Shown: piece by piece, positions 1-54,586 of the stretch | How the letters are laid out: each line of letters opens with the position of its first letter | How positions within the stretch are numbered: the first letter of the stretch is position 1 | Origin: Bispira polyomma | Lineage: Eukaryota | Reading direction: 5' to 3' | Assembly: GCA_965649765.1 (NCBI GenBank) | Contig: OZ287756.1 | Coordinates: forward strand, 41,850,001-41,914,000 | DNA length: 64,000 bases | The notes under the pieces: generated by a model | Database searches by the model: none | Seen by the model: only the letters and a program-made list of their open reading frames with translations | Told to the model about the DNA's origin: nothing | Position numbers and translations under genes: made by a program

Positions 1-116
1 GATAACTATAATGCAGTATCAGAGTAACTTACGACCAGGCAAAGAGTAAGAACGAGGACCAAAGAGTTGCCAAAATGTATACCAAGTTGCAAGGAGTTAT
101 ACAAAGATTACACCAG

Positions 117-468
117 GGGCCGTATTTACAAAGATTCTTATTGTTAGCATTAGTTATTCTTAAAAATATTTTACAATTTTTCTTAGATTAGGAAATTTTT
201 AAGAAAAATTATAAGAATAACACTTTAAAATTTGTTTTATTCCAATTCTTCGACTTTTTTAATGAAAAAAAAAAATTAAATAAGGCTAAAATCTAAGAAT
301 AGAACAAAAATGGCCAACTTTGTGGGTAGTAATTCTGCACAAAAATTCAAGATTAAGAAAGCAACAAATGTTGAAAAAAAATATTCCTAGAATTTTTCTG
401 AGAAAATTCGTGGATTAAAAAAAGAATAAGAGTAATTCTAAGAATAAGAATCTTTGTAAATACGGCCC
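117..468. mobile_element. MITE, tentatively PIF/Harbinger-like
   Basis: 26-bp perfect TIR GGGCCGTATTTACAAAGATTCTTATT, CAG at both flanks, AT-rich non-coding interior. Superfamily call is tentative. Confidence 0.75.
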
Positions 469-1395
469 AGGAGTAACCAAGAATGAATCTTAGTCTAGTA
501 GTTAGTTATGTGAAGCTCTTACAGACTTCTCAAGAGTTAACATCACTTTTTAGCTCTTGTTATCTCTGGTTTAAGTCTGGACAAGCATATTGCTAGCCTA
601 TGGATTTAATTGGGAGAACTCATGAGAAGCTCGTGACAGCTCAGTAATAAATCTACATGTCCATTGATTGGCTTTTGTCAAATTATGCATGACTCTTGAC
701 AGGTATTTGATAAATTCTCCATAACTCAGCTTGGTTCTCAGACTGCAAAGACCTGCAGTAGTTGTCCTGATTTATTAGGTTTTATAAGGACTTGTCCAAT
801 AGCTATATCCAGCTTCCTCAGTTGATCCAGAGTTATCATGACTCCTCAACTTAGGCAAAAATTTTGAACATAGCAATAATAATATTTCTTATAGTAATAC
901 TACCTTTTTGCCAGTGAAAAATAAAGTAATACTTTAAAGCTGAAAAATCTGTCCATAGAGATGTCTGTTTAATCTAAGAAGGTAACAACTATTAACCTGT
1001 TTTGAGGGTAACATTCAGTTTTGTCAAATAGAGACAAGGGCATTTTATTCTGCCAATTATCATTATTGTATTGTCAGGAGTAGAACCAGGCACCACCTGG
1101 TAACTAGATCAACTCCATAACCACTAGGACATAGGATACAATACAGCTATGGTTAAATTACAAAGGACATGTAAACCTAAAAGAATTAATAAAAACATTG
1201 TACTTTAATGCTTTAAAAAATACCACATGTAATAAAATATACCTATTGTAAACAAGAGGAAGTGACCTTCCGGTCACAAATCTCGAAGACATGTATCGAC
1301 ATGTGTCAAGGTGTGTACCTTAAAGTAAACTAATATTATCTGTCTATCTGTCATTGTATAAGTTACAACAACAAAAATAATCTGTCTACTTGTCA

Positions 1396-1549
1396 CAGTC
1401 CAATGGTAGTGTGAAAAGTTATAAGTTAATAAGTAAGTTTATTATAAGACAGTAAAAGATTGCATTTGAGGTTTTTATTTACATGTTAGCTTATGTACAG
1501 GTTGACAATCAAAGTCAGTTAAAATTTCAGGATGGAATTTTAAGCCCCA
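1396..1549 (-). repeat. E1 split direct repeat B2 (154 bp)
   Basis: Copy of B1 at the element 3' end, ending in GGACTG. Confidence 0.95.
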
Positions 1550-2162
1550 TCACGGCTACCATAAAATACAGCCGGGTCAAAAATAAAAACCCATAACAAA
1601 GCTAATAATAAGCTAAGAGACAATCACAAATATAAAGAATAGTGTAAACCCCTCAGTCACACCAGACTTTGGATTAGAACCAATAAAATAACCTCAAAAG
1701 AGGAAAATACATTTAAATACATTGATTACTATAAACATGACTATCATTAACATCACCTTCAACTAGTTCATTGTGTGAATAATGTACTGTAATATACAAC
1801 AAAGTTACTTTTGGTGACTAAGATACTAAGAACAATTTCAGGGGATAAACTTTCCTGTTTACTGTAAATTCTGACATGTATTTGTGATACATGGATACTA
1901 ATTGACGCTAGGTGATCGTGTACAAAAAAGGTGCCCTTGTGGGGACCACACGTGTACCCAAGTTATCGTCATTGTGTCTAAATTGGTACGTTGTGTTACT
2001 TATTCAACAAGTGGTATTAACTAGCTCAGTAAGCGTCCCTTGGATCGTTAACTTGAGTCATATGAAGCTGACCACTCTAATGTCGCGTATGTTATAACCC
2101 CATATGAGTCAATGTTCAACTATGCTTATAAATTGAAAATAAGTCCATGCAAGAGAGAACAT

Positions 2163-2335
2163 GCAACGTAGTAACAGCAGGACCCCGGGCCTTGGACACC
2201 AACCGCCTAGCAGGGTGAAGTCCAACCTCTCAGAGCCCCTTATTCCACTCTGGAACCCCAGTGGTGAACTCAGAGGAGGGAGTAAGAAGGAAGGACCCCA
2301 GACCCACACGGCCCGGAGCCCGGCCGCCACGTTGC
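2163..2335 (-). ncRNA. Putative structured RNA element in the E1 A2-B2 spacer
   Basis: GC-rich island with nested stems GCAACGT/ACGTTGC, GGCTCCGGGCC/GGCCCGGGGTC, CCTCT/AGAGG and GAGTTC/GGGCTC. The core is shared with 62525-62748. Confidence 0.55.
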
Positions 2336-2425
2336 CGTCAAACCTGCCTGGATAACCTTATGCATCAGAGAACCTTAAAATTTCTATAAATCCTTAATAA
2401 CGCTGTGGTAAGGGGAGGTGGTGGG

Positions 2426-2648
2426 TTTCAATTTTCTAAATGTCCTGTTTACAGGTGAAAACACAAATTCAATATGGAGGATAGCTATCCTAGCTTAGGG
2501 GTCACTAATAGCTAATGCTGTGATTGGACAAGGCCCAGATGGACAGAAAGTTGGATAATGCTATTGCATTCGCTAGGGATTAAGGTAGTGTGATAGAAAA
2601 AGGAGGTTGGACTGAACTAGCAGTCCCCTGGGGTGGACTTGCTATGCA
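2426..2648 (-). repeat. E1 split direct repeat A2 (223 bp)
   Basis: Copy of A1. Abuts B1 to form the junction GGACTG|TGCATAG on the element sense strand. Confidence 0.95.
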
Positions 2649-2802
2649 CAGTCCAATGGTGGTGTGAAAAGTTATAAGTTAATAAGTAAGTTTATTATAA
2701 GACAGTAAAAGATTGCATTTGAGGTTTTTATTTACATGTTAGCTTATGTACAGGTTGACAATCAAAGTCAGTTAAAATTTCAGGATGGAATTTTAAGCCC
2801 CA
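2649..2802 (-). repeat. E1 split direct repeat B1 (154 bp)
   Basis: Matches 1396-1549 with one visible substitution. Contains CTAACATGTAAATAAA (poly(A) signal). Confidence 0.95.
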
Positions 2803-2809
2803 AGCCCAA

Positions 2810-3783
2810 CTAAGAAGGAGGGATAGCCGCAGCAAAGGTGAGAGGCACCACTGAAGCAGCTTGGGAGGTCTTCTGTAGGTAGGTCCATACAGCTGAAGAC
2901 CTCCACAGGCCATGGGACATAATATTCTGCAGTGATACGTTTTTATTGAAAGCAAATGTGGCCCCCGACCTCCTAAATGTGTGGAACCCGTGTGAATGGT
3001 ATGGAATGCCTATGTGTTCTAAGACTCTCTGTAATGCGACTCTCACATGTGTCTCTATGACTGGGTAAAATGGTGGTGAGTTAACTGCAAACAGTGGTGC
3101 AGATGGAGGGAGAGGCCTAGACAAGATAAGCTGCTGTATAGCCCTTACTGGACATAAAATTTGGTTTTGAAGTACCGGAATTTGTATAATGTGGGAGTCT
3201 GATCTGTTTTGAAGGTTCTTAGCCCATTTCAAGATGACATGGGCCCCAGGAGGGGCAAAGATAATATCCTGTCTAAGAAAGTGCCTAGATGGGTCAAACG
3301 CTGCCCTAGAGTGAGAAGCCAGATTGGAAAGTCTCAAGAAGCCGAAAAAGGCTAGAAGGAAAATAGCCCTAAAAAGTACTGGATCCTGCAATATCTGACA
3401 AGCTTGGGATATCTGTGTTAACTGATGTATATCAAACAATCCCTTAGGTCTAGGCCTGAAAGTAGAGTTGATGGTAATGCTTCTCGTAAATAAAGAAACA
3501 GAGTTGTGTGTAAAAGGAGCCATACTCCACTGTAATTTGTTAGCCATAAATTTAAGTGATGAGAGGTAATTGGCAATGACAGCCGGTGAAAGGCTATTCT
3601 GTGCTAAGTATTCTAAGAAAGCCAGAACTGATGAAACATTAATGTGTTTAATGCCAGCAACATGTAAGAAAGCTAAAAATGTCTTGAATTGGTTACTGTA
3701 AGCTGTAGTGGTCTTTGGTCGCAGTGCCAAGTCTATTCTGTTGCAGGCTGATTGAACAAGTGTATGAGTGGAACTGGCAGAAC
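2810..3783 (-). CDS. E1 tyrosine recombinase; uninterrupted, no N-terminal ATG, probably a spliced exon
   Basis: Catalytic R (GFLRLSN), HxxR (HTFR), H (HGLW) and Y (VWTY). The frame is open from the TTTCAG acceptor at 3789-3784. Confidence 0.93.
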
Positions 3784-3789
3784 CTGAAA

Positions 3790-6536
3790 TTACACAGATA
3801 AGGCCAGGTCAAAGTACCTTATAGGGACCTCATTCCATTTATAACAATTTTGTAATTTAACAGTTAGCTCTGCAGTAGGAGGTTTATCTGAAAAAAAGTC
3901 TAGAAAGCGCATCTGCAATTACATTATTTTTCCCTGGAATGTGTTGTATGTCAATTGTGATGTCATGTGTGGCTGCAAGCAGCCAGATATTCCTTAAACA
4001 TGAGGCCAGAAAGTCATCCTTAGTTTTTTGTGAATTCACAACCAGTACTACGGCCATGTTGTCACAGTGAAACAAAACCCGTTGATGCGCCCACTTTAAC
4101 GCCCATACACGCAACGCGAGAATGATATTCAGCATCTCTAAGTGAACTATTGTCAACTCTCTGCCAAAAACATTGAAATATGGTGTAGCGTACACCTCAT
4201 CTTTCCACACGCCTCCTAAACCGGTAAGGCAAGCGTCTAAATGTAACTCACTCATGTTTTGAATCATAGGATGGTCAATGAAAGTTACTCCGTTAAATGT
4301 CTGTAAGAACTGCTTGAACCACGCTAAGTCGTTCCGCATGTCTTGAGAAATAGCAAATTTTTTCTTACCCTCATTGTTTCTAAATGCGTGAAGCAGTCTA
4401 TTAATAAAAGTGCGTGCCGGCTTGACGCATTTGTGCACATACAGAAGTTTCCCTAAGAGGGACTGAAACCGACTGCGCGTTATGAAGCGCCTGTTAAACA
4501 CGTCGCACACACATTCAAGAATCTCTTCTATTTTCCCATGCTGGATGCTAATAGTACCAGCAACAGTGTCAATGTTAATACCCAAACAAGTAATGCTAGT
4601 ACTAGGTGGGGTGCGTTTGTTTGCATTCATGGGGAGACCTAAATAGTCTAGCAGTTTGGTCAAAATCTGAAAACCCCTGTGAGCCTCTACTCTATTGGAG
4701 ACGCAAATGTAATCGTCGATGTAGCAGAACATATTGAAACCGTTTTTGCGCATATATGACGCTATTGCGTCAGAGCAGCGTTGAAACGCCGCTGCCATGA
4801 ATCCAGCCAAACGCCACCGCAGGATCTATGTAACTACCCTCTTCAAACTGGATTCCTAATTTTACAGCGTCAACAGGATCTACACGCAAATTACGGAAAG
4901 CGCGAGCTACGTCGATTTTAAACAATACCGGATCATCTGTGACTTTGACCGCACTAGTAATATCATCGATTGTAGGAAATTTCAGAATAAATTTTTTCCC
5001 ATCAAACATATTCTTATCAACATTCTCATTAAGCGAATTGCCTTGTGGGTATGAGAGGTTCAGAATTACCCTACGACTAGTAATGTCCTTGGGACGTGTG
5101 AGAAGTGGTGAACAATGGTAATGTGAGGAGCTAACCTCCTTCACTGGGCCCAACATGGCACCCTTATTACTTTCTTTAACCAGATATTCTCTCACACTAC
5201 TTGTGTGTTGGAGGGCAGAATAATGATTGGTAACAGAGGCATTGTTAAGCATTTCTGGATTGGTGAGAGAAAGAGGAAAGCCGAATCTAATGTACTGACA
5301 CAGCAACTGGTCAGGATAATCTTGGAAAACTTCATCCCATGCATCTGGATTAAGTCCTGACACCAGGGGAACCCTTGCTTGTCTATAATTGGGAAGTGCA
5401 GTGTCTCTGATAACAGAAGCCACTTGCAGCATGTCTTCTACTGTTTCAATTCTCTTAACAGGTTTGTCAGGACCTATGAATGTGAATGCTGTTGAGGAAA
5501 GTGCCAAGAAACCCATGGTTTTCTCGGGGTCATTAAAGTCCTTAATTTCTTTGTACAAATCCTTGTTTGCTCGAACACTATCAACCATTTGAGTGAATTC
5601 ATTGCTCGACGAGTTCATGTATATTTTATCACAAATCAGACTGTTTACAGTCTCACTTGGTTTTTGTGTACTTACATTTGACAGGTCTGCACAATTGTCT
5701 GACTTATGGCAATTGTCAGGTGTTTCGTCTTCACTGTCACTAATAAGTGCACCTACTAACCTGGTCATGTATTCAGTATAATCAAAACCCAACTGCTTGA
5801 AACAGGCATTATCTCTTTCGAAATAATAAAATGTATCAGCAGCTTGCTTGATCACAGCCTGGTGATGAGTTTCCACATTAGTATTACTGGTAGTATTTAA
5901 AGAAACAGCCTGAACCTGGATTATGGTTTGAAAGGTTTGAATAATACAAAGGTTTTGGCTAGGTGGAAATTCAACACGAGCATATACACACTTGGCAGCA
6001 GTCACGTCATAAAACATGTGGAAATAACCTGAGAATTTTCCATCCCTATCCCTAATGTAAACAATTGGAGCCAAATTTTTAATTTCCCCACAAAAAGTTT
6101 TCCAATTGGTAACTGATACCTGACACGTGTGTGCCTCTTTGTTCCAAGCTGGTGAATTAGCATAGTGACTGCTCCCATTTGAAATGCAGGCCTCAGTGCT
6201 CCTGTCCCATCTATGGTGACCCGACTGGGTCCTGCTCTGAAATTGAATACATTCATTTACATTCTTGGTTTCATACTGGTAGTTGTCGCCAGCATCTACT
6301 GAAACTGCAAAATTATTAAAGACATCATTATCAACAAAGTTCACCTTTATATCAGTGTTGAATACATTATTGACAAACCTTGTACTATCTGACATTATCA
6401 TCTGCTGATAATCATTACTATTGGAACTTTGCACAATTGTATTAATTTCAGACATGCCTCTGTCGCAATAACCTAATTCACTGTTTTTGTCCTTTATATT
6501 AAACTCTTTTACAAATTTACTGTTACCGTTCATCAT
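3790..6536 (-). pseudogene. E1 reverse transcriptase/RNase H ORF with two frameshifts
   Basis: Motifs HCSPLLTRPK, FKIDVARAFR, YIDD, LDACLTG, CDN and ADALSR. Frameshifts at ~4793 (FGWIHGS/AAFQ) and at the A7 run 3891-3897. Repairing the latter extends the ORF to ...RYFDLALSV* at 3790. Confidence 0.92.
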
Positions 6537-6590
6537 TGAATTACCCTTATCACTACCTAATGTTCGTCCAACTGGTTGTGAATCGTGGCC

Positions 6591-7822
6591 CTAGATGTTA
6601 CCTTGTTGTTTGTCTGGCTGTTTACTTACATTCGCTTTAAAGCATTTGAACTCTGGGTGCGACGCGTCCTTTCCTAATGTCTTATTACAATACCAACATA
6701 CATGACGATAATTGCCATGATCCGCCTTGTGAGTACACTTGCCATTATTAAACAGCTTACAGATGGATTTACTATCTGAAGAAGCCCCGTTAGCCAAGTT
6801 ACTGCATTGTTGCCTACCATAGCCATCTGGGAGGCACTGATGCGATTCAGTGCCCACTGAGTGTTGTCCTGCCAGGACAGCCTGCCTTCCTCGATCTCAT
6901 GCATACTGACAGCCCAGGCTGTCCTGACAGCAGGCCACGGAAGTGTGGCTGCATCCCGTAGTGCGTGTACCACTTGGTTCACCATAGCTTTCATTGTTGC
7001 CAGATCACTTACTTGTAGCGAGTTGGCCAGCTGGCCAGCCGCCCACTGCGGCAACGTGAGGTCGTCAAAGACTGGCCTTCGACGAGTCGATCCCCCACCC
7101 CAACCTTCGTTAGACCATCTGAGTTGGGGATCAGCTAAAGTAATATCTGTGGAGTTATAACGACCAGACTTCTGCCTGATTGAGTGCTTACCCTGGACTA
7201 GACCCCTCTGGGCCAAGGCTTCGTAGTCAGCCAGCTGCCTGGTAACGGCCGCCTGCACGTTTGGAAAAGATCTTAATGCATCGAGACTGGGGACAATGCC
7301 ATCTGTGTTGTAACCCTGACCTGTTGGTGGTTGCATCATAGGTTGAGCCAGCGGCTGCGCGACCCCATTGTACCTGGGAGGGGGAAGAGGTAACGAATAA
7401 CCCTCGTGTCTCTGTTGGACCACCGTACCATCCCTCATGGTGTGTAATGGAGAATTAGCGGGTCTAACTGTCTGTTTGTCCTCTACAAGTTGCAATCGCC
7501 GGGTTATGTTAGCGTTGGAGGTCTCCAGACCACGCAGAATGGAAAGAACCTCGGACATGCTTTGTGACTCGACTTGTGACTGGGGTACGGCCTGAGATGA
7601 GAGCCCGGCTTGGCTAGATGATCCATTTGAACTGGTCAGTAACTGAGAATCAATAAGAGGACACGCAGTGTCGGCAATGACTGTTCTATGTATTTCTGAT
7701 TGATCGTGAGTATTAGTAGTAGTTACCTGACCAGTACCCCTTTTCTTGGCTGTACTAGTTGAAGTTGTCTTTGTGGTCCGTTTCTTGCAGCTTAACACAG
7801 GAGTTGCTTTTGTTTTCCCCAT
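6591..7822 (-). CDS. E1 gag-like ORF1 with C-terminal Cys/His zinc finger (one frameshift near 6800)
   Basis: ATG at 7822, a coiled-coil segment and FDDLTLPQWAAGQL. The finger CKLFNNGKCTHKADHGNYRHVCWYC..H....C is in the shifted frame (6591-6857). Confidence 0.85.
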
Positions 7823-7916
7823 TTCACACAACAATCACTAGTTCCAGTACCACGTCAGTTAATAAAAAGAAGTAAAATATAAATAAAACCAATTCAGTGT
7901 AAATACGTGGTTAAAA

Positions 7917-8139
7917 TTTCAATTTTCTAAATGTCCTGTTTACAGGTGAAAACACAAATTCAATATGGAGGATAGCTATCCTAGCTTAGGGGTCACTAAT
8001 AGCTAATGCTGTGATTGGACAAGGCCCAGATGGACAGAAAGTTGGATAATGCTATTGCATTCGCTAGGGATTAAGGTAGTGTGATAGAAAAAGGAGGTTG
8101 GACTGAACTAGCAGTCCCCTGGGGTGGACTTGCTATGCA
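7917..8139 (-). repeat. E1 split direct repeat A1 (223 bp)
   Basis: Identical by eye to 2426-2648. Confidence 0.95.
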
Positions 8140-10880
8140 AACTAAAAGTAAAAAAAAAAATAACTGTCTATCTGTCGACATGTCAACCTATAAGGTACAA
8201 ACAAAATATTTATTTTATTTTGATTTTGGTTGGAAGCTTGTTGCTAGTGTATAGTCATGGGATACAATATTTTTGTTACATTATTTCGCAGATTTCTGGA
8301 GCTGCAAGTTTTACAAAAGTAACAGAAACAGAAATGTCAACCTTTAACAACAAAGTAAATATTTTTACAAAGAATAAATACTTTTGCATCTTCTGTCAAA
8401 ATGTGAAGCCATTATTTAGATTAATAACTGTGAAATAACATAATAATAATAATAATTACAGTATTTAATGTACCAATATCTATCTAAAGATAATCACTGA
8501 CACTACAAATTATTACCCCAAACCTATTTTATATCATTAGGTAGCTCACAGAAGTTGCTTTGTTTACCTACAACTCCATCTTGATTGTTGAGGGTCAATA
8601 TGTCTGTTGTATGGAGCGATTTCATTGGTTACTGTATGAGCGATTCTGATTGGCTGATCACACACACGTGACAATTCATAACAATAAAAATTGTGTAATT
8701 AGGAAGCCCATGGATATATTTGGAAAGCAAATCGAAGGGAATAATGGATGAAGGGTAAATTTTTAGAAATATTGTTGTATTTGTATGACAAAATAAAGAG
8801 TTTATCTTATTTTCTTGTGTCCGAAATCTGCAGAAAAGGGTTGCTTTTTAACGTCGAAATTAGAAATTAATTAATTATGAAGCCATATTTTCTAAACTAT
8901 GCACACATCACCTGATATTCTGAGCAGTTGAAAGACAGAATATATATATATCTATATATTAGGGAGTATCTATCAGTATGCAGTATCATTTCTCGACATA
9001 CGTTTTTGTTTGAGAAGTAAATTTAAGCGATTAATATAAGACAAAAGGTAAATTTTACAAATGCTATATGTATTTGTATGACAAAATAAAGAGTTTATCT
9101 TACTTACTTGTGTTCCAAAATGTCCAGAAAAGGGCTTGCCTTTTTAAATAATAATAATCCGTGGGTATAGTCACTAATAATAAAGCAATTCACTATTTTT
9201 TTTAAATACTATTTTCTCAACATATTACCTACACAGATAGATTCACATGTTTTTGATAGCCCTCACTGCAATAAATAAAGAGCATCGCTTTGAAATAGAA
9301 ATACTGTTTCCTCTTCGTATTTTTAGATATATTTGCTTTTCAAACGAAAACGTATACATCCCCTTCATTTTATATAATATGCATGGGGTATATATATATA
9401 TATAGATTAATTGAATTTAAATTTACGTGCTATATATATATATATATACTATATATTTTGTAAATGCTTTCAAATCTGTTTACTGCTCTTGCAATACTCG
9501 CTACATACACAGAATTGTTTAGAAGTAAAAAATATTGTTTCCTCGACATATTTAACCCCAAGTACACACAATATCTTATATTTTTTATTGAACGTGTATA
9601 TGGCCATTTTAAAGACAGAGTAATTTATTCTATATAGGTCTATATTTTAATCGACCAATCAGAAACTCGCCCCATCTGTGACAATATTTGTACTTTAAAG
9701 CAATGATGTGTATATATACTTGGGGTGCCATGACTGTTTCAAATAATCTATACATATATGTATACTTTGACATTCATAAACACCTTATATCTTCATTTTA
9801 TTTTCATAATATTTCCTACCTTATATTGCCTTGAAGATGGATATCCAAATATATTGCAGTTTGAATATGTGAGTGAAGTATATCTGTGTATATAACCACA
9901 ATAATAATAAAGCATTTTGCCATACACAGCATTGCTTTGAAGTCGTCAAATGGTCATTCAAGTATCTATATACTCTTAGATGATTACACAAATGGCAAAA
10001 GAAGAGGCAAGTTTCTGATTGGTGGATTAAAAAATTGTTTAGTACTACAAATATGGCGGTTTTGAAAGCTATCGAAGTTTTGCAAAAAACTAAAGAAATA
10101 TTATTGGATTAAAGCAACTATACGTGCATATAAGGTGATATTTTTCAAACTTTCATATAATATTAATATTTTTATTGAATAAGGACAATTTGGTTTCTAT
10201 TCGCCACTTCTTACCCATCGTATTGAAAAATTGTATCTATCTTCTGTTTACAAAAAAAAAAAACTGTAGTGTGGCACCGTCTAGCAGTCGAAACCATTGT
10301 TAAAAGGTGTGTGTTCTCGCAATTTAGAAGAAAAATAGAAGAAATAGATATATCCCGTCAGCATGGGTGTATATATATTGTAAAAAAATCCCCAACCATA
10401 ATCTTTGTTACATATATAAATGCATTTTAAAACCTACGACCAGGATTTGCTCCACGAAAAAAGGCATAAAAAAATATACGGTAATTGCGAGATCAAAGGT
10501 TAAATCTTATTTTACAAACAAAATAAAAAATTAATAGATATATTAATGCTTCTGACTCGTTTTTAGTACCAACCACATGTAACTGCCAAAAAATGACTGA
10601 AAATAATGGATGGAACTGGTAGAAAGTGCTGTTTACAGAAAAAAACATGTATCTTCTACATGATATACTACAATAATATTTTGAATTCTTATTACAAATA
10701 GTATATAGTTTTATATACTAAATAAAGCAATAACAATGATAAATATCAGAAAATTTTGAAGTGGACATATATGCATTGACAGAATATATGTGGGTATGTG
10801 AGGTAAACAATTTAGTCGGAGTTACTACATTTATCTGACAGTTGTATATTGGGAGATGTGGTTGAAAACATCAAACTTAC

Positions 10881-10982
10881 CCATGCAAACAGAGATACAT
10901 TGGTTGTATTTGCCCTTGAAGCTGAGTTGGGGCTTACAGCACTGGTCACAAGGCTCCTCAGTAACAGGGTCCGTAACTGGAA
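10881..10982 (-). CDS. Probable host-gene exon (Cys-rich), left-arm copy
   Basis: Mirror of 50250-50351: TTTTAG acceptor, G|GTAAGT donor, peptide PVTDPVTEEPCDQCCKPQLSFKGKYNQCISVCM. Confidence 0.6.
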
Positions 10983-43384: not shown

Positions 43385-44953
43385 ATTAACGACGACAAAG
43401 TTGCTATCAGAAAACAAAACTCACAGAATAGTCAGATTTTTGTGGCAATTGAAGATTCTGATCCCAACGTAAGTAATAAAGGTCTAGAATTTGACAGGGA
43501 GACTGATAAGTATCTATTGGGCCTCAGTACTTCCAAAAACAACAAACGTAAGCTACAAATAGCAAAAGACAACACCACTCACATGGCTTGGAACTCACAA
43601 ATGAAGGCAAAATTTGGTTATATTCCATTGGGGGATCTAAATCTCGGTTATCCAAAAGCTGTGAGTGTTGTTGAAAGTAATGCTTTGTTAGCAAATACCA
43701 AAATAAGACATACGGGTTTACATAACTTCATGCACTTGAATCTATGTATTCCCTCTCAGCTAAATGTGGAAGCATGGGAGAAACGACTGGAACATTACTG
43801 GGACCAACAATTAGTGAGTTTAATTCGCTGTGGTTTCCCTCTTGATGTAAAAGATCAATCAAATCTGGTAGCCACGGGTGAAAATCACAAGTCTGCCACA
43901 GAATTCTCTAAGCATGTCACTCATTATTTAAAGGAAGAACAGAATTTTAAAGCAATTATGGGTCCTTTTGATAAAAAAACCAGTAAGTAACTTCCACTCA
44001 TCCCCTTTCATGACCAGGGAGAAACCCAACTCAGATAATCGCAGGGTCATCATTGACCTGAGCTGGCCGAGTCAACATGCTGTCAATTCAAATGTGAGTG
44101 CGGAAATATATTTGGGTACTCCTTTTATACTTACTTATCCTTCTGTTGATTTAATAACAAATGAGGTTGTCAAATTGGGACGAGGCTCTAAGCTTTATAA
44201 GATAGACATTAGTAGAGCTTTTCGGCATGTGAAAATGGACCCGGGGATATCCACATGTTGGGTCTTTTCTGGGAGAATCAGTATTTTCTAGACACTTGCC
44301 TACCTTTTGGGTACAAGCATGGTAGCACTATTTTTCAAAAGCTAAGTGACTCAGTCAGATACATGATGCAAGAGCTAGGTTTCCCAGTTATCAATTACAT
44401 TGATGATTTCATAGGCTTTGGACTAACCACTACAGCTAAAAAATCCTATCATACCCTCTATGACCTCCTGCAGGAGCTAGGTTTAACAATCAGTAGTAAA
44501 AAACTCATTCCCCCTAGCACTCAGGTCACATGTCTAGGGGTAGACATAAATACTGAGACATTCACTATATCAATACCTAAAGAAAAAATGCAGCAAGTTC
44601 TGAATAATTGCATGACTTGGGGTGAGAAAGAAACATGTACCAAAAGACAATTACAGTCTCTCTTAGGCAGTCTGCTGTATGTAGCAAAATGTGTCAGAGT
44701 GGCTAGATGCTTCCTAAACAGAATGTTGCAATTGTTAAGGGACAACAAAAACAGTAGAAGTATCAAAATAACTGATGAGTTTAAAAAAGACCTTAAAGTT
44801 GTTCATGTACTGGGTGTCAAAAACAATGTGGCTGACCTGCTGTCTAGATGGCAGGACACAAAAGCCAACCATGCTCAGCTTAAAAGTTACATACCCAATC
44901 CAATATGGCTAGCGGTAAATGAAGAATACTTATATGTAGATTTCTCATTGTAG
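43385..44953 (+). pseudogene. E2 RT/RNase H, right copy (frameshifts; 363-bp in-frame RNase H deletion)
   Basis: 232 aa vs 353 aa in the left copy. The deletion joins two CTTAAA microhomologies (44792-44797). Confidence 0.9.
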
Positions 44954-44965
44954 CTGTACTTTCAG

Positions 44966-45948
44966 AAATTCCTCACGCTGCAGGTGTACTGGTTTCTGAT
45001 GCCTTGGCTAGGCTGCAGACAGCGTTCAGGCCTAACACTACAAAAAATTACCTGGCCATGTTTAAATCCCTCTTGGCCTACCTGTGTTTCCTGCGTTGTC
45101 CCACCTTCAAGGTAACAGTTCCGGTTTTCTTGTCTTTTCTTGAATTTTTGACAAAAAATCAAACATCTGCCTCTATGGTAATTAATCATGTGTCAGCTGT
45201 TAAAGCCTGTTTCAGTATGTATGGCCTGTCGATTGCCATGTTTGATGAACCTCGCATTAAACTGTATAACAAGGCCTCCCTCAATAATAGGCCCTTTGTG
45301 GCTCAGATTAAACCTGTTTTGGATTCGCATATGTTACTTCAGCTTGTATTGGCTTGTGATAGTACTAACATGGGGCAAATCTATAAAGCTGTGTACTTGA
45401 CAGCTTATTTTTCTTTTCTTCGCATGTCCAATCTGGCACCCCATGTTGCCTCAATGTTTGACTCATCGAGACATTTATGTAAAGGTGATATATTTTTCAA
45501 GCCTCCGGGCATTCACTTGTTAATCAAATGGTCAAAGACCATTCAGTCTAGAAACTTAGTGAGACTTACAAAGATTCCCTCCCTCGGCTCCACTGCTTTG
45601 TGCCCTGTGACTGCCCTGAGAAATGTTTTAAGGCTTTCCCCTGGGGGTCCCAATGCAGCCTTATTTCAAGTTAAAGTGGGTCAAGCCTGGGCTCCCTTCA
45701 CTGATAGCAAGATCAGGCATCATCTGGGAATAGTCCTCCATCTGGTGGGCCTTGGTAGTTCAGGCCTAACATTTCATTCTTTCCGGCGTTCAGGTGCGTC
45801 TTTGGCTTACAATTCTAATGTTGAGTTGGAGCATATCAAAGAACACGGCACCTGGACGTCGGATGCAGTTCGTTCATACTTGGTACAAGACCAAGCTGCG
45901 GGACAGCAAGTGGCCTTAGCTTTTAAAGCCCTTTTGCACAAACCTTGA
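44966..45948 (+). CDS. E2 tyrosine recombinase, right copy
   Basis: Catalytic R, HxxR, H and Y are present. TTTCAG acceptor at 44960-44965. Confidence 0.92.
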
Positions 45949-47548
45949 GACTACCCCTATTTTGCCTTGGTGTTTGGTGGTTTTATACACTAACAGTAAA
46001 TATCACATTTGGTTAAAAAGGTATATTTACACAAATAATCAGTATGGTAAATATATAATGCAGTTTATATCAGAATAACAGATCATTCTGATCTTATCTT
46101 TCATCTGTAATTAATCTTGTTTTACTGCAATTATACGTTCTGTAATTATACTCTTTTATTGCATGTATATGTTTTACGTAAGCTTAACTTTAATTAAGGT
46201 TACCTTAGTAAAGTTAGTAACCTTAACTTAAATTGCATGTAAAATCTAGAAACTGTAACTCACCTTAACTTAAGGTCACCTTAGTTAAGATTGCTCAAAT
46301 GGTGACCTTAACTTTAACGTATTGAAGTAGAAACTTAATCTGCTCACCTTAGTTAGTTTACGATGACCACAGACTGTATATAAAAGTAGTCACTCTAAAA
46401 AACTAGTAAATGTAATATTTTTACTAACATGTGAATAAATTTTTTTTTTTATCTCTCAAATTGTCTTATATCTTGAGGGTACCTTTACTTACCTTTCTGG
46501 ACTTGCCACTGAGCTGGGTACTGTAGATTCCAAACTTGCTAAACACTCAGTCACTGAGGACCTGTGTTATTCACTCAAGACGGCTGGGAATACATTCAGA
46601 CACCATAGTAATGTATGACATAGATAATTACTAATCAAAGCAATATTAATAGCAGCATTATTTGTTGCACCTGAGATGCCTAATGAGTATATATTACACT
46701 GTACCGGGGAGTCCTAGTCTGAGATTGAACCCAGATCAACTGCAGTCCAAGGTCAGTCACACTAGGCCACAGTGGCATAGTGTTAAATAATATTAATAAC
46801 AATATGAATATGACTAATACTAATACTACTTTTTACCAGTGAAAAATAAAAGTAAAATTTTAAAGCTGAAACTCATTTTATAGAAAGGCTTGGTTACTTT
46901 CAAAGGGTCCCAACCATTAACCTGTCTGAGGATAAATACCGAGGGCTGGGAACTAATTTGTACATCAGCATTGATACCAAATTTTAAACTGAAGTTTCAG
47001 TCCTCAGTTCTGGTGTATATAGTAATAAAACCCAAGCAGTATGCATTGCCATTAAAGTGTCACTACATTATTTTCTAATGATCAAGGCACAGGTCAAGTC
47101 TAAGTTTGTCTTTGCGTAGGCCTCACATTCCTAGTATAATGTATTAAGGTAAACCAATGCCCCTGCCATGACCAGTTATTGTAACAGGTTAAGGTGCTGT
47201 ACTATTCGGAATAGTAAGTTATGGCCACACTTGAGCTAGTCGGCAAAGGGGCCAACCTTGGTTGTTAACTATTACTGCATAAATGCATATGTATAGGTAT
47301 ATATATTATGTAAACAACTACCTACATGATCACAATTCACTTCTTTAATTATAATGAGCTAATGGCAGGTTAGAGCATAATGCTTATGTATGTTTCACCT
47401 TAGAGTGCATGGTGGCCCTGCACCAAAATCGAATATTCTGTCCAATTTGGCGAAATCAAAATCGGCATATATAGAGATAAAATCTACAAAAAAATACATC
47501 CCATTATTCAATATATATTATAAAGTAGCCTATTTTCTGTTACTTTAA

Positions 47549-47800
47549 AGGGGCCGCGGTGGCCTAGTGGTTAGCAAGCATTGCGCTTCACAATCACTGG
47601 TCTCTCACCTCTGGGCGGCATGAGTTCGAATCCTGTCGATGCCTATGTGGGAAAGGTGGTAGTTCCTTACTGTGGGCCGCTGGTTTCCCTGCAGAAGCTT
47701 GACCGACTGTATGCAGTGTTTCCTCCAGCGTTTCCAACTACCCGTCCCAATATAACCTACTAAAAGGTACTAGAGTGGACGTTAAATATTCAAATTCAAA
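47549..47800 (+). mobile_element. tRNA-derived SINE (mirror of 13402-13653)
   Basis: Same boxes and TSD. Confidence 0.9.
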
Positions 47801-48779
47801 TTCTGTTATTTTAAGCCAGCATGGTACATTTTAATTAATATAAAAAAACTAAAAACTACCCACTTATAAAAAACTTATATGTCACATTAAAAAAATTAAA
47901 AGTTAATATTTACCAAGACACTAACTAACTAACAATAACAGCAAACTGATTAACTGTTAATAAGAATAAAATACTTGGTAAAAATATCAATTTGTCAACA
48001 TAAGTAATTGATAACAATAAAAACTAACTAGTCATGTTATTATTATTTTTTATCTTATAATAGTTTATTTCATTTAGTTATCTTATTCCTTTTACTCCAA
48101 TAATTTTTTACATATCTTGCAAGATACATTGACTCAGGAGTCATGAATATGATAAACATTTTATCATGAAATAAAGACATAGAAATTCTTATGCTATTAC
48201 CAAATCTCTTCATAAATTATTGTCTTTCTTTGTGATTAGTTGTACAATATAAAAAGCGATATACTTCCTCATTTTCCTTATCTAAATAAAGTAAGCAAAC
48301 TTTTAATCAGACTTTTCTAAAATAATAGCCAGCTGTTATATAAAAAGGTAGTATACCTATCCTTAATTTGGATTAAAGTAAGTTTTGTGATCTTTTTGTT
48401 GAATCATGTACATATTTGTCTGCATGAATATCCTTTTTACCCTTTTTTTACCCGGGTGTTGTTTTCACCCTTGTTATCTGGTTGGGCAGGCGGAACGGGC
48501 GGTCGTGCACACTGCATCTGCTAACCTTGTCTGGGCCAGGTCTCGTATGGTGGAAGAAGTTCAAACTTAGTTGGGATGTTCCTTAGGGGGTCAAGTTGTG
48601 GAACGTCACGTCTGACCTTGGTTTTACCTTTGACCTTGCCCCTGTGACCTTGGACTTGATAATCTAGTTTAGAAGGTAAGATGTATATCTGGTATGTATA
48701 ATAATACTATAATCTCCCTTTTGATGCATCATAAAGTTGAAGTCATACCATGCTTACAGAGAAGAGCTGACCAACAATC

Positions 48780-48827
48780 ATGCTGATATATTGGCCAGAA
48801 TACTAATTGGGATACTATTGTGGACAG
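48780..48827 (+). pseudogene. Candidate damaged signal-peptide exon of the host gene
   Basis: ATG CTG ATA (TA) then LARILIGILLWT G|GAGAG. The model needs a frameshift repair and a GT>GA donor change, so it is speculative. Confidence 0.2.
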
Positions 48828-49042
48828 GAGAGAAGAGAGAGATCATTTTCAATACTGACCCTACTTACATTCGAAAGTCTCCTCACTCTGTGGTTTGATA
48901 TATACTTATCCATTACATGAACTATAGTGATCTTTTAGAGCCCCTAAAAGTTGCTAAATGACGTTTCATATAAAATGTGTGCTCTTTTAATAAAAGTTGA
49001 GGGTCAATTTACATTGTATTCAAATTTTCAAATAACTAGGCA

Positions 49043-49394
49043 AAGTAAATATAAATAAATGTAAATACCTGGTTTATAGTCAGATATCACATCTATTGAG
49101 GTCTCATCCGACTTAACAGTTTACACCCCCAGCCTGGGTTCTTTCACTTGTCAACCAATTGTTTAGTCTCAGCTCCCTCAGGAAGCATACTAGCTGTCCT
49201 GCCACATATGGCGCACAAAGACTAACAACCATTAGCAGCCAGGTACCCATTTATACACCTGGATAGAGAGGGACAACTTTGTGTAAAACACCTTATTCAA
49301 GGGTACAATCCCCAGGCCGCAGGCAAGGATTGAACCCTGGCTCTTAAGATACCTTGAGATTCAAAGTCCGACACACTAGCTATTAGGCCACAGA
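49043..49394 (-). mobile_element. tRNA-derived CORE-like SINE (mirror, retains B box GGGTTCAATCC)
   Basis: Has 26 extra bp at ~49317-49342 relative to the left copy. Confidence 0.7.
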
Positions 49395-49512
49395 GATAGA
49401 AACATCTATCAGACATGATAACATATAGTGACTAGTTACGAATTGAGTTCAATAAATTTAAATTTAGTGAATATAAATTATTATGCCATTAATAACAGTA
49501 TTTTGTCTCCAG

Positions 49513-49563
49513 TTCAAAGTGTTGGTGAATGGGACACATTCAGACACCACAATAAATTAGACC
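49513..49563 (+). CDS. Candidate 51-bp phase 1-1 host exon
   Basis: TTTTGTCTCCAG| (V)QSVGEWDTFRHHNKLD C|GTAGGT. Confidence 0.3.
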
Positions 49564-49630
49564 GTAGGTGTAGACTGAAATTCCAAAATTTAAATTCTCT
49601 AGAAGGAAACTATTGTTTGCTAGATCTCAT

Positions 49631-49856
49631 CAGTCCAATGGTGGTGTGAAAAGTTATAAGTTAATAAGTAAGTTTATTATAAGACAGTAAAAGATTGCGT
49701 TTGAGGTTTTTATTTACATGTTAGCTTATGTACAGATTGACAATCAAAGTCAGTTAAAATTTCAGGATGGAATTTTAAGCCCCATCACGGCTACCATAAA
49801 ATACAGCCGGGTCAAAAATAAAAACCCATAACAAAGCTAATAATAAGCTAAGAGAC
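49631..49856 (-). mobile_element. 226-bp 3'-terminal fragment of the E1 family (mirror)
   Basis: Direct match to 1396-1621. Confidence 0.92.
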
Positions 49857-50108
49857 TCTGTGTTCTATACTTAGCTTGTTTTTTGGGTAGCTAATTTCAT
49901 AATGAATCATTAACTATTGCTATCTTATTTATACATGTATTCTTTGGTTGATAGGGCACCATATAAATGTGGTATATTGTTATTACTATTATCATTATGT
50001 CATGCGTGTGCACTCTGGCGAGTGATTTTTGACATATAAACAGATGGCGGAAATTAAAAAGAGTTCATTTATACTTTGTTCTCTGGGTTATTAATCATCA
50101 CTTTACAG

Positions 50109-50138
50109 CTTCAGATACTTGTCTTGTTACACAAAATG
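50109..50138 (+). CDS. Candidate 30-bp phase 1-1 host micro-exon
   Basis: CTTTACAG| SDTCLVTQN G|GTAAAA. Supplies the sixth Cys. Confidence 0.4.
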
Positions 50139-50249
50139 GTAAAAAAATAATAATAATCAGACCAAAAATAAGAATGTTAAGCCTTAAAATCTGAATGTTA
50201 CAAAATAATGATCTTGCAAATAGAAACAGTAATTAAATCTCACTTTTAG

Positions 50250-50351
50250 TTCCAGTTACGGACCCTGTTACTGAGGAGCCTTGTGACCAGTGCTGTAAGC
50301 CCCAACTCAGCTTCAAGGGCAAATACAACCAATGTATCTCTGTTTGCATGG
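50250..50351 (+). CDS. Probable host exon, Cys-rich domain
   Basis: 102 bp, phase 1-1, CACTTTTAG acceptor and G|GTAAGT donor. GC-richer than its flanks; CxxCC-x12-CxxxC. Confidence 0.6.
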
Positions 50352-53300
50352 GTAAGTTTGATGTTTTCAACCACATCTCCCAATATACAACTGTCAGATA
50401 AATGTAGTAACTCCGACTAAATTGTTTACCTCACATACCCACATATATTCTGTCAATGCATATATGTCCACTTCAAAATTTTCTGATATTTATCATTGTT
50501 ATTGCTTTATTTAGTATATAAAACTATATACTATTTGTAATAAGAATTCAAAATATTATTGTAGTATATCATGTAGAAGATACATGTTTTTTTCTGTAAA
50601 CAGCACTTTCTACCAGTTCCATCCATTATTTTCAGTCATTTTTTGGCAGTTACATGTGGTTGGTACTAAAAACGAGTCAGAAGCATTAATATATCTATTA
50701 ATTTTTTATTTTGTTTGTAAAATAAGATTTAACCTTTGATCTCGCAATTACCGTATATTTTTCTATGCCTTTTTTCGTGGAGCAAATCCTGGTCGTAGGT
50801 TTTAAAATGCATTTATATATGTAACAAAGATTATGGTTGGGGATTTTTTTACAATATATATACACCCATGCTGACGGGATATATCTATTTCTTCTATTTT
50901 TCTTCTAAATTGCGAGAACACACACCTTTTAACAATGGTTTCGACTGCTAGACGGTGCCACACTACAGTGTGTTTTTTTTTGTAAACAGAAGATAGATAC
51001 AATTTTTCAATACAATGGGTAAGAAGTGGCGAATAGAAACCAAATTGTCCTTATTCAATAAAAATATTAATATTATATGAAAGTTTGAAAAATATCACCT
51101 TATATGCACGTATAGTTGCTTTAATCCAATAATATTTCTTTAGTTTTTTGCAAAACTTCGATAGCTTTCAAAACCGCCATATTTGTAGTACTAAACAATT
51201 TTTTAATCCGCCAATCAGAAACTCGCCTCTTCTTTTGCCATTTGTGTAATCATCTAAGAGTATATAGATACTTGAATGACCATTTGACGACTTCAAAGCA
51301 ATGCTGTGTATGGCAAAATGCTTTGTTATTATTGTGGTTATATACACAGATATACTTCACTCACATATTCAAACTGCAATATATTTGGATATCCATCTTC
51401 AAGGCAATATAAGGTAGGAAATATTATGAAAATAAAATGAAGATATAAGGTGTTTATGAATGTCAAAGTATACATATATGTATAGATTATTTGAAACAGT
51501 CATGGCACCCCAAGTATATATACACATCATTGCTTTAAAGTACAAATATTGTCACAGATGGGGCGAGTTTCTGATTGGTCGATTAAAATATAGACCTATA
51601 TAGAATAAATTACTCTGTCTTTAAAATGGCCATATACACGTTCAATAAAAAATATAAGATATTGTGTGTACTTGGGGTTAAATATGTCGAGGAAACAATT
51701 TTTTTTACTTCTAAACAATTCTGTGTATGTAGCGAGTATTGCAAGAGCAGTAAACAGATTTGAAAGCATTTACAAAATATATAGTATATATATATATATA
51801 GCACGTAAATTTAAATTCAATTAATCTATATATATATATATACCCCATGCATATTATATAAAATGAAGGGGATGTATACGTTTTTGTTTGAAAAGCAAAT
51901 ATATCTAAAAATACGAAGAGGAAACAGTATTTCTATTTCAAAGCGATGCTCTTTATTTATTGCAGTGAGGGCTATCAAAAACATGTGAATCTATCTGTGT
52001 AGGTAATATGTTGAGAAAATAGTATTTAAAAAAAATAGTGAATTGCTTTATTATTAGTGACTATACCCACGGATTATTATTATTTAAAAAGGCAAGCCCT
52101 TTTCTGGACATTTTGGAACACAAGTAAGTAAGATAAACTCTTTATTTTGTCATACAAATACATATAGCATTTCTAAAATTTACCTTTTGTCTTATATTAA
52201 TCGCTTAAATTTACTTCTCAAACGAAAACGTATGTCGAGAAATGATACTGCATACTGATAGATACTCCCTAATATATAGATATATATATATTCTGTCTTT
52301 CAACTGCTCAGAATATCAGGTGATGTGTGCATAGTTTAGAAAATATGGCTTCATAATTAATTAATTTCTAATTTCGACGTTAAAAAGCAACCCTTTTCTG
52401 CAGATTTCGGACACAAGAAAATAAGATAAACTCTTTATTTTGTCATACAAATACAACAACATTTCTAAAAATTTACCCTTCATCCATTATTCCCTTCGAT
52501 TTGCTTTCCAAATATATCCATGGGCTTCCTAATTACACAATTTTTATTGTTATGAATTGTCACGTGTGTGTGATCAGCCAATCAGAATCGCTCATACAGT
52601 AACCAATGAAATCGCTCCATACAACAGACATATTGACCCTCAACAATCAAGATGGAGTTGTAGGTAAACAAAGCAACTTCTGTGAGCTACCTAATGATAT
52701 AAAATAGGTTTGGGGTAATAATTTGTAGTGTCAGTGATTATCTTTAGATAGATATTGGTACATTAAATACTGTAATTATTATTATTATTATGTTATTTCA
52801 CAGTTATTAATCTAAATAATGGCTTCACATTTTGACAGAAGATGCAAAAGTATTTATTCTTTGTAAAAATATTTACTTTGTTGTTAAAGGTTGACATTTC
52901 TGTTTCTGTTACTTTTGTAAAACTTGCAGCTCCAGAAATCTGCGAAATAATGTAACAAAAATATTGTATCCCATGACTATACACTAGCAACAAGCTTCCA
53001 ACCAAAATCAAAATAAAATAAAAATTTTGTTTGTACCTTATAGGTTGACATGTCGACAGATAGACAGTTATTTTTTTTTTTACTTTTAGTTTGACAAGTA
53101 GACAGATTATTTTTTTTGTTGTAACTTATACAATGACAGATAGACAGATAATATTAGTTTACTTTAAGGTACACACCTTGACAAGTAGATACATGTCTTC
53201 GAGATTTGTGACCGGAAGGTCACTTCCTTTTGTTTACAATAGGTATATTTTATTACATGTGGTATTTTTTAAAGCATTAAAGTACAATGTTTTTATTAAT

Positions 53301-54027
53301 TCTTTTAGGTTTACATGTCCTTTGTAATTTAACCATAGCTGTATTGTATCCTATGTCCTAGTGGTTATGGAGTTGATCTAGTTACCAGGTGGTGCCTGGT
53401 TCTACTCCTGACAATACAATAATAATAATTGGCAGAATAAAATGTCCTTGTCTCTATTTGACAAAACTGAATGTTACCCTCAAAACAGGTTAATAGTTGT
53501 TACCTTCTTAGATTAAACAGACATCTCTATGGACAGATTTTTCAGCTTTAAAGTATTACTTTATTTTTCACTGGCAAAAAGGTAGTATTACTATAAGAAA
53601 TATTATTATTGCTATGTTCAAAATTTTTGCCTAAGTTGAGGAGTCATGATAACTCTGGATCAACTGAGGAAAACATCTAATAGCTGGATATAGCTATTGG
53701 ACAAGTCCTTATAAAACCTAATAAATCAGGACAACTACTGCAGGTCTTTGCAGTCTGAGAACCAAGCTGAGTTATGGAGAATTTATCAAATACCTGTCAA
53801 GAGTCATGCATAATTTGACAAAAGCCAATCAATGGACATGTAGATTTATTACTGAGCTGTCACGAGCTTCTCATGAGTTCTCCCAATTAAATCCATAGGC
53901 TAGCAATATGCTTGTCCAGACTTAAACCAGAGATAACAAGAGCTAAAAAGTGATGTTAACTCTTGAGAAGTCTGTAAGAGCTTCACATAACTAACTACTA
54001 GACTAAGATTCATTCTTGGTTACTCCT

Positions 54028-54378
54028 GGGCCGTATTTACAAAGATTCTTATTCTTAGAATTACTCTTATTCTTTTTTTAATCCACGAATTTTCTCAGAA
54101 AAATTCTAGGAATATTTTTTTTCAACATTTGTTGCTTTCTTAATCTTGAATTTTTGTGCAGAATTACTACCCACAAAGTTGGCCATTTTGTTCTATTCTT
54201 AGATTTTAGCCTTATTTAATTTTTTTTTTTCATTAAAAAAGTCGAAGAATTGGAATAAAACAAATTTTAAAGTGTTATTCTTATAATTTTTCTTAAAAAT
54301 TTCCTAATCTAAGAAAAATTGTAAAATATTTTTAAGAATAACTAATGCTAACAATAAGAATCTTTGTAAATACGGCCC
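54028..54378. mobile_element. MITE, mirror copy of 117-468
   Basis: Same TIRs, in the right arm. Confidence 0.75.
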
Positions 54379-54586
54379 CTGGTGTAATCTTTGTATAACT
54401 CCTTGCAACTTGGTATACATTTTGGCAACTCTTTGGTCCTCGTTCTTACTCTTTGCCTGGTCGTAAGTTACTCTGATACTGCATTATAGTTATCCATTTT
54501 TGGGCCGAGTTTCCAGTCAACCAAAAGTTATAACTCTGTGTTACTCGGGCAACTCCAGCTTTTAACTCATGAAAGCGGGAGTCGTG

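Follow-up and report, generated by a model that had tools for sequence, protein, structure and literature searches.

Architecture and content of the locus

The window (the whole stretch of DNA analysed, 64,000 nucleotides of Bispira polyomma contig OZ287756.1) contains members of a tandem array of an orphan gene, several retrotransposons and the centre of a very large palindrome (Table 1). An earlier note on this DNA had reported a giant palindrome of at least 54 kb with some 23 kb of shared inverted sequence, and both observations were borne out, the in-window arm alignment holding 22,911 matches and 85 substitutions, far above chance. The limit that it placed at 54494 was wrong: with the flanks included, the inverted arms extend from window position -64327 to 30122 and from 30618 to 123519, a total of ~188 kb with no N, and the 464 kb surrounding the palindrome likewise hold 0 N bases. 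In the analysed DNA, 31-mers of the arms occur twice and those of the junctions once, and the inverted copy adjoins a single-copy spacer. With 86 kb aligned at 99.54% identity, the arms fall within the size and identity rule for sex-chromosome palindromes (>8 kb, >99%).

Table 1 Features of the palindrome (window coordinates; YR, tyrosine recombinase; RT, reverse transcriptase)
Feature	Position	Strand	Details
Left arm	1..30122 in window; reaches upstream to -64327		94.4 kb
Right inverted arm	30618..64000 in window; reaches 123519 (J3)		92.9 kb
Self-BLAST inverted block	1-1395/53092-54494		98.6%
Self-BLAST inverted block	8138-16412/44789-53093		99.2%
Self-BLAST inverted block	16767-17747/43816-44797		99.8%
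Self-BLAST inverted block	17748-30122/30618-42986		99.5%
J1	30588..30589		Actual point of strand switching; 2-bp microhomology TG/CA; original loop inferred at 31 nt
J2	30618..30619		470-bp same-direction deletion in right arm; 2-bp microhomology GT
LINE 5' part	30123..30589	-	467 bp; native continuation of left arm; single-copy, absent from right arm
Right-arm tip remnant	30588..30619	+	32 bp; LINE sequence; overlaps each neighbour by 2 bp
Central broken LINE, right-arm copy	30590..34534	+	Endonuclease 31899-32552 and RT 33455-34039 (PF14529, PF00078)
Central broken LINE, mirror copy	26207-30589	-	
Left-arm-only YR retrotransposon	1394..8137	-	6,744 bp
Right-arm-only YR retrotransposon	100763-106510		5,748 bp; same type as 1394..8137
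Older YR retrotransposon, both arms	41112..45948	+	Mirror 15253-19623
Terminal remnant of YR element family	49631..49856	+	226 bp; mirror 11376-11601
Segment absent from right arm	16404..16766		363 bp; site 44797; 6-bp microhomology
Segment absent from left arm	42987..43815		829 bp; site 17748; 5-bp microhomology
Exon B, copy Y	10881..10982	-	Cys-rich; 102 bp; AG..GT
Exon B, mirror copy Y'	50250..50351	+	Identical to Y
Exon C, copy Y'	54802..54947	+	Thr-rich 24-bp repeats, then stop codon

The array gene has three exons and encodes a Cys/Thr-rich peptide predicted to be secreted. Copies W and Z carry a signal-peptide exon, which copy Y lacks; the place of their promoter and exon 1 is occupied in Y by the 226-bp YR remnant which, being present in both arms, is older than the palindrome. 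A candidate exon at 49513 was dropped after the signal-peptide exon had been found in W and Z. Comparison of the copies indicates that formation of the palindrome raised the number of complete peptide genes from two to three by adding W', whose exon 1 departs from that of W by one codon, and also added Y', a copy without exon 1. Exon B matched 0 Pfam families, and a word-index search of longer proteins, itself weak, yielded no candidate for it; there was no usable Atlas match, from which neither absence nor novelty follows. Its single HMMER match (P0001, E 3.7e-7 over five summed stretches) was to a multiheme cytochrome by way of repeated Cys pairs, and was rejected. Elsewhere in the arms, a scan of 17 chosen window frames and 48 of 65 long flanking-locus frames, which short exons would escape, returned named families that were all transposons, bar three weak matches below the curated cut-off.

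The earlier note had all nested elements duplicated. This is not so, since the 6,744-bp element is confined to the left arm and further indels are arm-specific; indeed, each arm carries its own young retrotransposon insertion. The split direct repeats of the left-arm element have 100% and 99.4% identity. Its frames are gag-like, RT/RNase H and recombinase, and it lacks a target duplication. Both arm-specific insertions match the Ngaro-type layout of split direct repeats (A1..B1 A2..B2), gag, RT and recombinase frames and no target duplication, and we take them to be elements of that type. The older YR retrotransposon common to both arms is interrupted by an L1-like element (mirror frames 19712-25139).

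The centre of the palindrome

The gap of 495 bp between the arms (30123-30617) had been placed correctly; it is not one native spacer, being composed of the 467-bp LINE part and a 32-bp piece. It owes its length to the 470-bp J2 deletion in the right arm. In all 11 family copies fetched, the sequence of the 32-bp piece is found a short way downstream and reversed (27-32 bp aligned, 90.6-100% identity). Paralog W and L004 share its 30-bp core without a mismatch; the native link seen in these two gives the 31-nt size of the original loop. The point 30617/30618, at which spanning reads had been proposed as a test, coincides with J2, a same-direction deletion rather than a strand switch, and one that might equally be present on a second allele. 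The junctions that decide the matter are J1 (30588-30589) and J3 (123519/123520), both of them read from the assembly.

Each new adjacency shows microhomology (2 bp at J1, 2 bp at J2, 1-4 bp at J3), a 2-bp match arising by chance at 13% of simulated junctions. Only three other deletions of at least 300 bp are found in the two 86-kb arms, and the probability that one such deletion ends within 50 bp of the apex by chance is ~0.002. A native hairpin at J1 (6-bp stem, 4-nt loop) is not unusual (z -1.0).

Divergence between the arms

Of 86,151 sites aligned between the arms, 395 (0.46%) are different. With the outermost 3 kb excluded, these differences are distributed close to a Poisson expectation (variance/mean 1.1-1.6, P 0.08-0.31). 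Divergence along the arms is not perfectly uniform: the outermost 3 kb are rich in differences (37, the mean being near 13), and the inner 10 kb show 28 where 43 would be expected (P 0.014, post hoc). Divergence shows no significant trend with distance from the apex (Spearman P 0.11-0.16; Kolmogorov-Smirnov P 0.009). An outgroup was available for 263 of the 395 differences, of which 119 are derived in the left arm, 130 in the right, 5 have both states among paralogs and 9 fall otherwise; the changes are AT-biased (144 S>W, 71 W>S). Differences that are near-Poisson and AT-biased, with a mild deficit in the inner 10 kb, offer no evidence of an old palindrome kept young by arm-to-arm conversion.

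The first differences appear 70 bp from J2, with substitutions at 30688, 30695 and 30827. Together with the 470-bp deletion 32 bp from J1, they establish that the arms are not two readings of one molecule. A single-molecule fold-back chimera arising during reading or amplification requires identical arms beside the junction and was rejected, because the arms differ there.

The outer junction and the tandem array

The original direction of the chromosome returns at J3, inside the tandem gene array, and the 68.0-Mb contig goes on from 41.97 Mb, so that ~26 Mb of distal chromosome are kept in place and orientation. J3 falls on a relic of 255-260 bp that matches one other place only, the flank trailing array unit Z, and an array unit boundary is expected there. 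Beyond J3 the flanking sequence is an older paralog (for the most part 80-98% identity); there is no third near-identical forward copy. Comparison with paralogs W and Z suggests that ~19 kb, comprising the remainder of unit Y and the flank that trails it, was probably lost at J3; this sequence was not found elsewhere in the assembly among 40 of 5,036 candidates scored, a weak search.

The longest identity run between the paralogous segments V and V', of 331 bp (the next being 121 bp), covers the J3 position (P ~0.001 for the run, ~0.09 for the overlap), as expected if the arm end truly sits inverted beside V'. That the tract begins exactly at J3 was rejected, as it overhangs by 71 bp.

Contigs from sequencing runs

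Three sequencing runs (X1-X3) were available from one study of at most two samples of unrecorded kind, possibly including the assembled animal, X1 and X2 being from the same sample. No RNA run was listed among the carriers of the sequence. An exact 58-bp Logan contig (30590-30647) spans J2 in two of the three, X2 and X3. It equals the union of the 28 J2-specific 31-mers and places 28 and 30 bases on its two sides, under the 31-base rule of the tool. In X1 the J2 contig is missing and the neighbouring pieces are fused into one 43-bp contig; as the sample is that of X2, short junction paths can evidently drop out. Among the contigs listed, none crosses J1 (30589/30590) in any of the three runs, which is evidence neither way. 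In X2, the listed contig pieces account for the depth bins at 30572-30580 and 30590-30616.

Per-contig depths for the left-arm-to-spacer path, J2 and shared arm stand at about 1:1:2 (14.9, 13.2 and 24.2 in X2; 68.7, 106.4 and 143.7 in X3), a weak hint rather than a copy number; the J2 value in X3 stands at 1.5 units.

Origin of the palindrome

We consider it probable that the palindrome is real rather than a mis-join. The locus displays an interstitial inverted duplicate, an adjacent deletion (~19 kb, as estimated from W and Z) and an intact distal chromosome, the configuration known as INV-DUP-DEL. The account that we favour, with moderate confidence, is an interstitial inverted duplication of ~90 kb with an adjacent deletion, formed by a fold-back over a 31-nt loop whose apex was later trimmed. 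A nascent or broken strand ending in CA would have paired with TG 31 nt upstream and copied backwards (J1); the inverted copy may then have been rejoined to the forward chromosome at J3, through end joining or a further template switch, with the loss of ~19 kb. Later, the 470-bp deletion of one arm tip (J2) would have widened the centre to 495 bp and stabilised the palindrome. We infer the order of J1 before J2 from the instability of a 90-kb palindrome with a 31-nt loop; a single event with two switches would leave the same sequence, and one haplotype cannot tell the two apart. The arms would then have diverged nearly independently, by ~0.23% each; if a rate of 0.5-1e-8 per site and generation is assumed, their age would be some 10^5 generations.

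Alternatively, one replication event of the FoSTeS/MMBIR type may have made three template switches, leaving the forward strand to copy the 32-bp piece backwards, skipping 470 bp, copying 93 kb in inverted orientation and returning at J3; no chromosome would then ever have carried a palindrome with a 31-nt loop. Such switching is known to leave short templated pieces flanked on either side by 2-bp microhomology; this path yields the same final sequence, and all three junctions carry microhomology. J2 is nevertheless a plain same-direction deletion that resembles the microhomology deletions of 363 and 829 bp at other places in the arms, and later deletions that widen palindrome centres have been described (10.1101/2023.09.19.558550). 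We hold the three-switch event to be possible, if unlikely.

The end-to-end joining of haplotypes was the right artefact for the earlier note to raise. The arms would here be the two alleles of a heterozygote, one of them reversed, with ~19 kb of true sequence missing. The 0.46% divergence, the arm-specific transposons and indels and the roughly equal depth of both arm types in the runs all have an allelic look, and with J1 and J3 drawn from the assembly, J2 by itself could be a deletion in the second allele. We nevertheless judge a mis-join distinctly unlikely. It requires two chimeric joins, both gap-free and both with microhomology, the first placing two haplotypes head to head 33 bp apart and, by chance (P ~0.002), 32 bp from a 470-bp polymorphism. 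Furthermore, J3 falls on an array-boundary relic and within the V/V' identity tract, and the exon-B matches (7/7) and arm-end matches (3/3) all lie at the palindrome locus, leaving no haplotig elsewhere. The native link (two fetched copies) reads 2.1-2.6 depth units where the allele model requires 3-4, a weak argument in the same direction.

Fold-back or template switching, both named in the earlier note, fit the locus; the classical breakage-fusion-bridge cycle named beside them (breakage within the LINE, fusion of sisters or a fold-back, a dicentric bridge, a second break at -64327 and capture of the distal fragment) agrees with the human model in the fold-back geometry of J1 and the adjacent deletion (PMC3907307), yet is highly improbable because after 93 kb the chromosome takes up its former locus and direction again and the distal ~26 Mb keep their place and orientation, the loss amounting to only ~19 kb. 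For interstitial cases, an explanation other than this cycle is said to be required (10.1101/2023.09.19.558550).

Relation to known palindromes

In the fold-back inverted duplications with a disomic spacer that Hermetz et al. (2014, PMC3907307) describe in humans, an inverted copy adjoins a single-copy centre, as here, with inverted microhomology at the junction (2-8 bp at those sequenced, a range that includes the 2 bp at J1) and a neighbouring deletion. The human cases described there end in a telomere, translocation or ring, have spacers of 1.9-70 kb and arose de novo in patients, whereas the present palindrome is interstitial, resumes the same locus, has a 495-bp spacer that probably derives from a 31-nt loop and has accumulated 0.46% divergence. 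It thus acts like a Hermetz-type fold-back at J1 but is not classed there, its distal chromosome having been retained.

ODIRA-derived INV-DUP-DEL rearrangements (10.1101/2023.09.19.558550) are likewise interstitial, with an intact distal chromosome and an adjacent deletion. In them, a very short original interruption is widened when part of one arm is subsequently deleted, which is said to stabilise the palindrome. The geometry observed here (31 nt, 470 bp) fits such a widened interruption. In contrast to ODIRA as presented there, the locus has no third forward copy and only 2 bp of inverted homology; and whereas the human short-spacer precursor was inferred, here it would be readable from the 32-bp remnant. 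Primate sex-chromosome palindromes (PMC8327919) share arms of >8 kb and >99% identity, a gene family and a centre that is a site of deletion; they differ in that the spacer here is very short and there is no evidence of an old age kept young by conversion.

The palindrome is a large, clean example of a known and well-described class of rearrangement. It is tempting, though doubtful as a whole, to regard it as a fixed 188-kb palindrome in the germline of a wild animal that arose by a 31-nt-loop fold-back followed by a one-sided 470-bp rescue, for which a 495-bp spacer sufficed over ~10^5 generations with almost no conversion, and which added a working copy of an orphan gene for a secreted Cys/Thr-rich peptide. 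Should the palindrome be an artefact, the assembly would contain a gap-free error of 93 kb by which a gene family is inflated, a matter of concern for annotation. If real, the palindrome means that animal genomes can retain an inverted repeat of very large size over a short spacer, retains a trace of the short-loop precursor usually assumed in models of inverted duplication, and reveals one route for copy gain in a young tandem gene array. Haplotypes with an untrimmed apex, if any survive, would offer a direct natural test of models of palindrome stabilisation.

Palindrome structure

Within the analysed assembly (1,035 Mb, 75 contigs), self-BLAST of the window revealed four collinear inverted blocks of 98.6-99.8% identity flanking the central spacer, in agreement with the giant inverted duplication of at least 54 kb proposed in the earlier note; here 22,911 sites match between the arms, with 85 substitutions and several indels separating them. 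Extending the comparison by 100 kb in both directions showed the palindrome to be larger than claimed, running from -64327 to 123519, with no N bases across 464 kb around the locus. Across the full-length arms, 395 of 86,151 aligned sites carry substitutions (0.46%; 272 transitions and 123 transversions), and there are 58 indels.

The palindrome centre is unusually readable. It falls within the 5' portion of a broken LINE, recognised by its endonuclease and RT frames, of which many dispersed copies exist at ~92% identity. All 11 fetched LINE copies keep the order of 30000-30589, followed by one additional base and the reverse complement of 30588-30619; a 30-bp core of this piece is exact and in native order in paralogous array unit W and in locus L004. 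This native order places a strand switch at J1, with 2 bp of microhomology (TG/CA) and 31 nt between both in the native sequence. At J2, the 32-bp piece joins the right arm in the same direction, with GT shared and 470 bp removed. Thus, the 495-bp spacer described earlier holds as a gap between blocks, but its origin is better read from these comparisons as a deletion of one arm beside a fold-back whose loop is tiny. The arms contain three further deletions (363, 829 and 1,149 bp), polarised using open frames and paralog Z; at this rate, one would end no more than 50 bp from the apex with a probability of ~0.002, which points to a link between J2 and the apex.

The locus consists of tandemly arrayed units of 27-50 kb, about 80-98% alike and sharing a single orientation, the inverted arm excepted. 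At J3 the inverted arm adjoins a 255-260-bp piece, whose sole other match is the trailing flank of Z (159585-159839), beyond which units V' and Z follow with the original orientation restored. The junction has 1 bp of microhomology, or as many as 4 bp should the paralog have changed. Relative to W and Z, the remainder of unit Y and the flank trailing it, some 16 + 3 kb, would be missing. A second, older inverted pair, its members ~3 kb apart, consists of the arm end and V'. V and V' carry 132 differences over 3,735 bp, and their longest run of identity (331 bp, the next being 121 bp) spans the position of J3, overhanging it by 71 bp and lending modest support to a real adjacency of arm end and V'.

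Features of the locus in window coordinates; negative values and any above 64000 belong to the adjoining contig sequence
Feature	Position	Mirror or partner	Description
Arms	-64327 to 30122	30618 to 123519	
Spacer	30123-30617		
J1	30588-30589		strand switch
J2	30618-30619		deletion junction
J3	123519/123520		original orientation resumes
Peptide gene family	-77 kb to 157 kb		
In-window exons	10881-10982; 50250-50351; 54802-54947		
Exon B, V	-65.9 kb	V' 125.2 kb	V with stop; V' a paralog in the original orientation, not a mirror copy
Exon B, W	-36.8 kb	W' 90.2 kb	
Exon B, Y	10.9 kb	Y' 50.3 kb	
Exon B, Z	145.2 kb		
Lone exon 1	near -76,740		diverged
Second inverted repeat	120549-123519	126505-129443	created by J3; ~3 kb, 95% alike, 3-kb spacer; 260 bp adjoining spacer identical in both arms and V'
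Young YR retrotransposon	100763-106510 (L025-L026)		right arm only; open frames 364, 359, 344 aa; split direct repeats 161 bp (97.5%), 90 bp (100%); no second copy within 464 kb around locus
Older YR copy	-58069 to -48063	1394-8137, inserted later	95-97%; LINE-interrupted
YR remnant	11376-11601		
MITE-like element	54026-54381; 7-414		~350 bp, AT-rich, inverted ends, many dispersed copies; V' unit starts at about its edge
23-bp tandem array	61984-62243	-8828 to -8590	~9 copies; units partly self-complementary, so array is its own inverted repeat
Broken frames	22302-23052	37693-38443	probably a transposon fragment; weak below-cut-off matches to SH3-like integrase tail and Ulp1-type protease
M60-like peptidase gene	162,029-163,998, minus strand (L032:8029-9998)		just past array; two long frames; PF13402 E 4e-39, PF17291 E 1.5e-17

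Real structure or assembly artefact

Read data for the region comprise three runs from one study. In two of these (X2 and X3) an exact 58-bp contig, 30590-30647, crosses J2; it is the union of 28 31-mers unique to J2 within the fetched DNA and has the maximum possible length for such a contig, its flanks of 28 and 30 letters falling under the 31-letter rule. J2 is thus present in data beyond the assembly, while J1 and J3 come from the assembly sequence. By itself, however, J2, the junction at 30617/30618 singled out by the earlier note, could be allelic. A haplotype mis-join, with the arms two alleles joined end to end, is the one artefact risk remaining; it would require two gap-free joins, both with microhomology, an apex deletion arising by chance, and a landing on an array boundary. 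Within the region, per-contig depth in the runs, which should not be read as copy number, stands at ~1:1:2 across spacer, J2 and shared arm. For the native link, the uninverted order across the centre, depth comes to 2.1-2.6 units; with a diploid locus as the unit this fits its two fetched holders, whereas alleles would call for 3-4. This pattern hints at duplication over alleles. The structural arguments are stronger than the depth hint and, taken together, make it quite likely that the palindrome is real. A single-molecule chimera is excluded by arm differences adjoining the apex.

Divergence since duplication and known counterparts

Each arm has gained its own tyrosine-recombinase (YR) retrotransposon (left 6,744 bp, right 5,748 bp); both have split direct repeats and lack a target duplication. 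The YR family has struck the array at least three times, the remnant included. A paralog outgroup was available for 263 of the 395 arm substitutions: 119 were derived in the left arm and 130 in the right, 5 were shared with paralogs and 9 were of other kinds. Changes from G/C to A/T numbered 144, the reverse 71. The outermost 3 kb hold 37 differences, and counts are near Poisson once these are omitted; the inner 10 kb hold 28 where 43 were expected (P 0.014, post hoc). This distribution reads as a single origin followed by independent drift of the arms, with conversion appearing slight.

The palindrome is a large example of an already known type of rearrangement. J1 acts like the human fold-back junctions covered in PMC3907307, although the structure here is not terminal. 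Its overall layout matches INV-DUP-DEL with secondary palindrome trimming as presented in bioRxiv 10.1101/2023.09.19.558550, where interstitial cases are said to fit BFB poorly. Its dimensions agree with the size rule for palindromes in PMC8327919, which also describes enrichment of spacer deletions, but the palindrome here carries no clear sign of conversion-based upkeep. Long arms combined with short spacers characterise the least stable palindromes according to PMC7999016.

A predicted peptide gene family

Exon B occurs seven times in the assembly, always within this locus and always with AG..GT ends. Three copies (W, W' and Z) are complete: a TATA-like motif precedes a first exon of 76 bp, a 102-bp exon B encoding five cysteines (C-x2-CC-x12-C-x3-C) and a final exon made up of Thr-rich repeats. 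Exon 1 is absent from the other four (Y, Y', V and V'). By inspection, the first exon reads like a signal peptide. A Pfam scan, a protein word-index search and HMMER found no relatives, and we predict an orphan gene whose product would be a secreted peptide carrying five cysteines and ending in a Thr-rich tail. Exon B of Y differs from that of Z by five synonymous and no non-synonymous changes, though Y lacks exon 1; W and Z differ by four and three, respectively, and changes between V or V' and W, Y or Z are mostly non-synonymous. The duplication raised complete predicted gene copies from two to three, with W and W' differing at one codon, in exon 1.
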